NCBI RefSeq assembly: GCF_045037415.1
Contig: NZ_CP173438.1
Direction: 5' to 3' (one strand)
DNA from: Escherichia coli
Lineage (GTDB): Bacteria; Pseudomonadota; Gammaproteobacteria; Enterobacterales; Enterobacteriaceae
Length of the DNA stretch: 64,000 nucleotides
Part shown: one piece after another, positions 15,126-15,404 of the stretch
Position numbering within the stretch: the stretch's first letter is position 1
Layout: the number at the start of each line of letters is the position of its first letter
Translations under genes and position numbers: made by a program
The notes under the pieces: model-generated
What the model saw: only the letters and a program-made list of their open reading frames with translations
Databases searched by the model: none
What the model was told of the DNA's origin: nothing

Positions 15126-15404
15126 CGAAAACAATCCCGTGGTAGCAAAGCGGGCATTTTAGCTGACCGAAAGAGAAAAGCAAACGTTTGCCACATCCTC
15201 ATCTAAATATTTAAATGAGATAAATGTACTTTTTTATATAACTTTTAGTTGTTTTCTGCTTAAAATCCATGCCATTTTTCTATTTTCAGCGAAGAATTCG
15301 AACCAGGAAAGCATGACTCGATACTCGTCATATTTCGCCTTACTGCAAATGCGCGATGAAGTATGACGAGTATGAAAGAGTGATGCGGACACAAAGGAGT
15401 AACT

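Follow-up and report, generated by a model that had tools for sequence, protein, structure and literature searches.

A perfect inverted repeat upstream of Escherichia coli gltS as the core of a candidate stem-loop in the gltS mRNA leader

Escherichia coli K-12 grows on glutamate only if regulatory mutations, acting in cis or in trans, raise the level of the glutamate permease, uptake being otherwise too poor, and to our knowledge the molecular basis of this control has never been defined. In E. coli contig NZ_CP173438.1 (assembly GCF_045037415.1), from which a stretch of 64,000 nucleotides was analysed (hereafter the window), a perfect 12-bp inverted repeat lies between the divergent genes xanP and gltS. 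The question raised by this locus is whether the repeat is an operator for a dimeric regulator or an RNA stem in the gltS 5' leader, the two readings offered by the initial annotation. The explanation we favour, with confidence somewhat better than even, is that the repeat is the core of a 76-nt stem-loop in the 5' leader of the gltS mRNA, which would act in cis as an RNA structure and not as a protein operator, and would be a genus-specific element affecting mRNA stability or the context of translation.

The features of the locus are collected in Table 1. The coordinates of both arms and their separation by 29 nt were confirmed as initially annotated, and the distance of about 35-85 bp given there to the gltS start was essentially right, the arms lying 32-84 nt upstream of the gltS ATG as read from the sequence. 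The gene names also hold, since xanP and gltS are so annotated on either side of the 279-bp spacer (15126-15404) in a 100%-identical E. coli record. A nested shorter repeat, ATGAC...GTCAT, is indeed present (15313-15317 / 15327-15331), although its ATGAC falls just outside the left arm to which it had been assigned.

Table 1. Coordinates of the inverted repeat, the predicted hairpin and the neighbouring gene features in the window.
Feature	Position	Strand	Sequence, size and basis
Left arm of the perfect 12-bp inverted repeat	15321..15332	+	ATACTCGTCATA; sequence read, repeat search
Right arm of the perfect 12-bp inverted repeat	15362..15373	+	TATGACGAGTAT; exact reverse complement of the left arm
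Whole predicted stem-loop	15311..15386	+	76 nt, 25 bp in three helices; RNA fold
Outer helices, 4 bp each	15311-14/15383-86 and 15316-19/15378-81	+	RNA fold
Apical loop, hypervariable	15338..15356	+	19 nt; variable at 16/19 alignment columns in the Escherichia lineages; for the most part replaced in the K-12-type allele
CAGGAAA, GGA-containing motif	15304..15310	+	Directly 5' of the hairpin base; kept in nearly all enterobacterial gltS leaders
Inferred gltS -10	15261..15266	+	TAAAAT; TAAAAT/TACAAT/TACACT at the same place across genera
gltS Shine-Dalgarno	15394..15399	+	AAGGAG; 8 nt 3' of the hairpin base, unpaired with the hairpin
gltS coding sequence (sodium/glutamate symporter)	15405..16610	+	401 aa; longest ORF to the right, annotation of a 100%-identical E. 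coli record
xanP (divergent left-hand gene)	ATG at 15125	-	Annotation of a 100%-identical E. coli record
Allele-specific uORF	15313..15366	+	17 codons (MTRYSSYFALLQMRDEV); start codon in the nested ATGAC, stop codon within the right arm

The 12-bp repeat forms the central part of a larger, imperfect palindrome that spans 15311-15386. In the repeat search the arms lengthen to 16 nt at 94% identity, and in the RNA fold they become a continuous 17-bp helix (15321-15337/15357-15373) containing two G-U pairs, the predicted stem consisting of 4 + 4 + 17 bp interrupted by a 1-nt bulge and a single small internal loop. When the left half is reverse-complemented, the right half aligns to it over about 30 nt, small indels apart, and because it is such an imperfect reverse complement, an inverted duplication is the most economical origin of the structure. 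The hairpin starts 1 nt past CAGGAAA and ends 8 nt short of AAGGAG, and the sequence 3' of the stem (GCGGACACAAAGGAG) contains no T-run. As there is no U-tract and the fold prediction pairs neither the Shine-Dalgarno (SD) sequence nor the AUG with the hairpin, the element is neither a terminator nor an SD-sequestering structure. A terminator scan of 15050-15500 likewise returned none at 15311-15386, and no RNA 3' end in the gltS leader is listed in the accessible part of the published Term-seq table.

The statistical weight of the repeat and that of the fold were evaluated separately. The window contains three perfect 12-bp inverted repeats with spacers of 3-60 nt, compared to 0.27 +/- 0.73 per shuffle in 100 dinucleotide shuffles, and since 17% of the shuffled windows hold at least one, the 12-mer by itself is only suggestive. 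The 101-nt stretch that holds the hairpin (15310-15410) has a predicted minimum free energy of about -35 kcal/mol, compared to -20.5 +/- 3.0 for its shuffles (z = -4.9; 0 of 200), and the hairpin of the K-12-type allele reaches -29.6 kcal/mol (z = -3.7). The hairpin is not a chance feature, because the fold is far more stable than those of shuffled sequences and is conserved across Escherichia species. The other two perfect 12-bp repeats of the window are located at 31619-31654 and 44601-44628; the former is a bidirectional intrinsic terminator with a T-run (AACAAAAAACCTCGCCCCGGCGGGGTTTTTTGTT), and the latter a tight, terminator-like 12-bp hairpin with a 4-nt loop, located in an AT-rich spacer and without an obvious T-run.

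Of 5426 complete E. coli genomes, 5423 have an 88-nt region containing the hairpin, in a single copy and never on plasmids; by blastn (word size 11, E up to 10) the number of copies per genome had a median of 1 and a maximum of 2 over the 5423 E. coli genomes. A repetitive element of the REP, ERIC or MITE kind was ruled out by the single copy per E. coli genome. The region carries no annotation in E. coli records, and Rfam 15 returned only noise in the window (MIR2646, 16 bits vs a threshold of 245). In a wider survey, in which one genome per species was scanned for GltS relatives, 80 loci were recovered, 75 of them from outside Escherichia. The hairpin is also present in E. albertii, E. whittamii and two further Escherichia species, and is missing from all 75 loci of the other genera surveyed (Citrobacter, Salmonella, Enterobacter, Kluyvera, Buttiauxella and others). 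The conservation across the family proposed as a check in the initial annotation thus holds within the genus Escherichia but not in Salmonella, Citrobacter, Enterobacter and the rest.

Two alleles of the hairpin occur in E. coli. The window type, which is that of ST131-like strains, has the perfect repeat and is carried by about 1225 genomes, ST131 included, whereas in the K-12 type the central helix is mismatched at two positions. The latter (K-12/B) was found as an exact match in 3427 genomes and as a near-exact match in 771 more, that is, in about 77% of E. coli genomes; its left arm is ATACcCGTCATAg, most of the loop is replaced, and in MG1655 the hairpin is located at NC_000913.3 3,828,684-3,828,759 on the minus strand, with the proposed gltS -10 at 3,828,804-3,828,809. 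The alleles differ at approximately 24 of 72 positions within 15278-15350 and almost nowhere else, the flanks being nearly identical. The K-12-like form of this segment is carried by Escherichia sp. MOD1-EC7003 as well, suggesting either a polymorphism of long standing or introgression. Of the two states the perfect repeat is probably the more ancient, because the other Escherichia species share the window-type loop; perfect pairing, on the other hand, is not required, because the majority K-12-type allele has two mismatches in the central helix. In an alignment of eight E. coli sequences (the window, BL21 and six variants) all the changes were confined to the left half or the loop and the right half was invariant, an observation that would also fit a sequence-specific role of the right half.

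Whether the hairpin would be transcribed depends on the position of the gltS promoter. The distance from the proposed -10 hexamer to CAGGAAA is 37 nt, identical in Escherichia and Salmonella. The hexamer would place the transcription start at about 15272-15276 and give an Escherichia leader of about 131 nt. It is the conservation of the -10 across genera, that is, promoter conservation by itself, that points to transcription through the hairpin. No full sigma-70 consensus match was found by a promoter scan of 15050-15500, and the portions of the Cappable-seq, SMRT-Cappable-seq, ROSE and Term-seq supplements at hand contain no gltS transcription start entry. Resemblances of the arms or the promoter region to a Pho box, a PurR box and sigma-32 or sigma-28 promoters were examined by eye and rejected on account of spacings that differ from the consensus. 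In E. coli BH212 an IS4-family element with an ISVsa5-like transposase is inserted inside the gltS SD sequence, just downstream of the hairpin (1800-3143 of the extracted locus, window equivalent about 15399), and gltS is annotated as frameshifted in that genome.

The gltS leaders of the other genera provide the context in which the Escherichia hairpin can be interpreted. Outside Escherichia the leaders are 78-83 nt long and follow a TAnAnT hexamer (TAAAAT, TACAAT or TACACT) at a fixed place. Their first element is a hairpin (H1) that begins close to the inferred +1 and frequently has a CUCAUGAnGAG core; it is followed by (C)AGGA(A/U)A, a motif that is single-stranded, by a short second hairpin (H2) of about 8 bp and 22 nt (for example GCGUGUGA-AUGGA-UCAUGCGC), by a stretch of 4-8 nt and by AAGGAGC. 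When 35 of these leaders were aligned with MAFFT, with no structure fitted, the two hairpins were paired in 76.6% of cells vs 25-45% with partners slid, and the covariation score was 0.299 vs at most 0.149 in the slid controls. A covariance model built from this alignment (R1) recovers 71 of the 75 non-Escherichia loci, Edwardsiella and Shimwellia being missing from its matches, and in the alignment fitted to the model 13 of 17 pairs show two-sided changes. This H1-GGA-H2-SD leader of about 80 nt (about 1410-1503 in the extracted loci, with the gltS ATG at 1501; window equivalent 15261-15404), in which the GGA motif is invariant and both hairpins are supported by covariation, corresponds to no Rfam family, and a search with Rfam gave zero matches in the gltS leaders of six other genera.

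H2 is rich in G-U pairs, and its pairing amounts to 83.7% on the gltS sense strand vs 67.8% on the antisense strand; for the Escherichia hairpin the figures are 96.0% and 89.1%, respectively. Better pairing on the sense strand is a signature of RNA structure on the gltS transcript and not of a DNA site. The Escherichia leader is about 52 nt longer than the others, all of the excess being located between CAGGAAA and the SD sequence, and on the gltS sense strand the hairpin occupies the position of H2, with the GGA motif on its 5' side and the SD on its 3' side. The homology of the hairpin and H2 is positional and not demonstrated, because matches of the Escherichia leaders to R1 are weak and mis-registered (8.5-22 bits, in a register that ignores the real CAGGAAA, vs 21-90 bits in other genera); the leader of the window itself was unreported by R1 at E <= 10 in a 124-kb search. 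Comparison by eye identified remnants common to Citrobacter H2 and Escherichia (GCAT..CGCGATGA..GATGCG). Altogether, of the two readings initially proposed, the observations give more support to an RNA stem in the gltS leader, placed as it is at the site of a conserved, covarying and G-U-rich hairpin elsewhere; the stem is, however, one of 25 bp over 76 nt and not of 12 bp.

Constraint on the hairpin within the genus was analysed in seven Escherichia lineages, in which 96% of the pair cells are standard pairs. Five pairs change solely by a one-sided switch to G-U, four are mismatched in one or two lineages, and no two-sided, compensatory change was found at any hairpin pair. In consequence, selection on pairing, selection on sequence and arm-to-arm conversion fit alike, and covariation is uninformative within Escherichia. 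Variability is distributed very unevenly: 3 of 24 columns vary in the 12-bp arms and 10 of 50 in all paired positions, compared to 16 of 19 in the apical loop (Fisher p about 2e-6), 16 of 44 in the 5' flank and 196 of 401 at gltS third codon positions in the same taxa. Relative to synonymous sites the stems thus evolve slowly and the loop fast, suggesting constraint on the stem or conversion between the arms, and this combination of slow stems and a fast loop argues against a protein site that depends on the spacer.

An unlikely explanation, though one that accounts for several of these observations, is that the inverted duplication in the Escherichia ancestor left a functionless, slowly decaying palindrome, the apparent conservation of which would reflect short divergence or templated repair within the palindrome. 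The restriction of the hairpin to one genus, the lack of compensatory changes in Escherichia, the mismatches acquired by the majority E. coli allele and the absence of a gltS-leader signal in published CLIP-seq or Term-seq tables are all consistent with such a relic. This explanation has nonetheless to be reconciled, by conversion between the arms, with arms that are 12% variable vs 49% for gltS third codon positions and 84% for the loop, and it leaves aside the family-wide covarying hairpin at exactly the same position.

A more ambitious and quite unlikely proposal is that the whole gltS leader constitutes an undescribed cis-regulatory RNA across the Enterobacteriaceae, of which the Escherichia hairpin would be a lineage-specific expansion of the second helix; such a leader could be, at the RNA level, the cis-acting "operator" of classical glutamate-permease genetics, or the target of recurrent gltS/xanP intergenic mutations. 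Mutations of the latter kind were reported, without positions, in the experimental evolution of K-12 (bioRxiv 10.1101/2023.01.13.524028), and they hint at the cis-regulatory importance of the spacer.

In classical glutamate-permease genetics control was assigned to a GltR repressor and a gltC operator, which are not known to have been cloned. An operator on the DNA, in which the arms would be half-sites of a multimeric transcription factor repressing gltS or xanP, with GltR/gltC, PdeL and PtrR (YneJ) as candidates, is in our view improbable. ChIP-seq/ChIP-exo peaks of PdeL (PMC8669472) and PtrR (PMC9068703) were reported somewhere in the gltS/xanP intergenic region, without coordinates, and sigma-32 and sigma-28 holoenzyme SELEX peaks fall in the same spacer, also without coordinates. 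The PdeL and PtrR peaks speak for an operator, as does the fact that the arms keep their sequence without covariation and that E. coli shows no change in the right half. Against it, a distance of 41 bp separates the centres of the half-sites, compared to about one to two helical turns for dimeric factors, and the spacer between them is hypervariable, changing in both sequence and length; the half-sites would lie at about +48 to +100 from the inferred start and lie more than 190 bp from the xanP start; and the repeat is absent in all other genera even though the promoter blocks are conserved there. Moreover, the K-12 strains that showed the ChIP peaks carry the imperfect repeat, the PtrR study found no PtrR motif here (PMC9068703), and the spacer contains a better operator candidate, a 22-bp palindrome at 15198-15219 adjoining a PurR-like box at 15178-15193. 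The initial suggestion of an operator for a dimeric regulator, confronted with this spacing, this position, the most variable segment as its spacer and an absence outside Escherichia, finds no support.

Other elements of the spacer and of the xanP start were noted. At 15178-15193, 53-68 nt upstream of the xanP start, AAGCAAACGTTTGCCA forms a nearly perfect palindrome that resembles a PurR box (core GCAAACGTTTGC) and is invariant in three aligned E. coli spacers, which fits purine control of a xanthine permease. The adjoining palindrome at 15198-15219 (CTCATCTAAATATTTAAATGAG) is AT-rich, with 11 of 12 arm positions complementary, and does not vary in E. coli. Its central part is similar to a 13-mer found upstream of pdeL, and a peak at xanP/gltS is among those reported by ChIP-seq of PdeL. 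This AT-rich 12-13-mer, and not the inverted repeat, is the sole similarity between the region upstream of pdeL and the gltS/xanP spacer. Within the first 60 nt of xanP, a hairpin (GCGCAACCGGTTGCGC) is located at 15079-15096, and the published Term-seq table contains an RNA 3' end 54 nt into xanP (MG1655 3,828,999; window about 15071), just past this hairpin, so that premature termination of xanP is possible.

Very improbable, in turn, is an attenuator in which translation of the uORF in Table 1 would melt the hairpin and the freed right half would pair with gltS codons 2-7 (15408-15425), shutting off gltS translation. In the window allele an SD-like AGGA lies 4-5 nt upstream of the uORF, and once the left arm is taken away the fold prediction pairs the right half with the beginning of the coding sequence (duplex of -17.7 to -20.3 kcal/mol). 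A 9-mer, CTCGATACT, is common to the left half (15317-15325) and to gltS codons 4-6 (15414-15422), which makes the right half complementary to the beginning of the coding region as well. Yet the alternative duplex is no better than those formed by shuffled right halves (z = -0.8; 105 of 500 as good), and substitutions in the coding sequence are uncompensated in two lineages. In the K-12-type allele, carried by about 77% of E. coli genomes, the uORF has ATA in place of its start codon, and its product is reduced to 6 aa in Escherichia sp. E1V33, consists of 14 unrelated aa in E. albertii and is frameshifted in MOD1-EC7003; since neither start nor length nor frame is conserved in the seven Escherichia lineages, the uORF is not regarded as belonging to the mechanism. 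An ORF on the minus strand (15234-15413, 59 aa) was rejected, as its length varies between 1 and 59 aa from one Escherichia lineage to another.

Equally doubtful is translational repression by a CsrA dimer binding both the GGA at 15306-08 and that of the SD sequence (15396-98), brought together by the hairpin: GGA motifs flank the hairpin base in all genera and an additional GGA occurs in several genera, either in the loop of H2 or in that of a small hairpin, but gltS is unbound and not significantly changed in the E. coli CLIP-seq/integrated table (PMC5694010 supplement) and the Salmonella table has no CLIP peak at gltS, a negative result that is not strong because gltS expression is low in those data.

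Returning to the cis-acting stem-loop, the following mechanism can be proposed. The gltS gene would be transcribed from the promoter with the conserved -10 TAAAAT, giving a leader of about 131 nt in Escherichia vs 78-83 nt elsewhere, in which the position of H2 would be filled by a 25-bp hairpin that probably arose by inverted duplication (template switch) in the Escherichia ancestor. As a stable module, the hairpin may protect or insulate the translation-initiation region, both as a barrier to 5'-end-dependent attack by RNase E and by keeping the AU-rich upstream leader from mispairing with that region. Furthermore, the predicted hairpin falls within the dsRNA length associated with RNase III (about 20 bp or more, largely continuous); its 25 bp would be long enough for this enzyme, the action of which would set the half-life of the gltS mRNA and its level of translation. 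A literature search returned no paper linking gltS and RNase III in E. coli.

A structured and conserved leader is a candidate for post-transcriptional control of glutamate uptake that is cheap to test. As the second hairpin is enlarged in Escherichia and differs between ST131-like and K-12-like alleles, it is also a candidate for strain differences in glutamate uptake. If inert, it would still illustrate cleanly how a palindrome can arise by inverted duplication in a 5' UTR, with its arms kept and its loop evolving faster than synonymous sites.

Leader hairpins are a familiar kind of element; the gltS hairpin is undescribed, being without annotation, Rfam family or paper found. Within the window it shares with the intrinsic terminator at 31619-31654 and the terminator-like hairpin at 44601-44628 the condition of an intergenic perfect inverted repeat of at least 12 bp; the loops of these are, however, of 4-12 nt, whereas the gltS repeat has a loop of 19-29 nt, is A+T-rich, lacks a T-run and is located upstream of a gene start. 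The hairpins of the ompA leader are stabilising or insulating 5'-UTR stem-loops of enterobacterial mRNAs. Like them, the gltS hairpin is stable, lies upstream of the SD sequence without overlapping it and has no U-tract, and it is a plausible barrier to decay from the 5' end; in contrast, the protective ompA hairpin is at the extreme 5' end, while that of gltS would begin about 38 nt into the inferred leader and is far longer (25 bp). Processing hairpins for RNase III are known in the 5' leaders of rnc, pnp and other genes, and the gltS hairpin, known here from fold prediction, likewise consists of nearly continuous dsRNA of more than 20 bp with small internal loops in a 5' UTR. The closest comparison is with the gltS leader of the other enterobacteria as described by R1, with which it shares the gene, the inferred promoter, the spacing of the GGA motif and a hairpin between GGA and SD; it differs in the size of the hairpin (76 nt in Escherichia, about 22 nt elsewhere), in the sequence of the stem, which is unrelated, and in that H1 is degenerate in Escherichia. 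As the H2 of the other genera, with about 8 bp, is too short for RNase III, an RNase III site in the gltS leader would be a gain specific to this genus.
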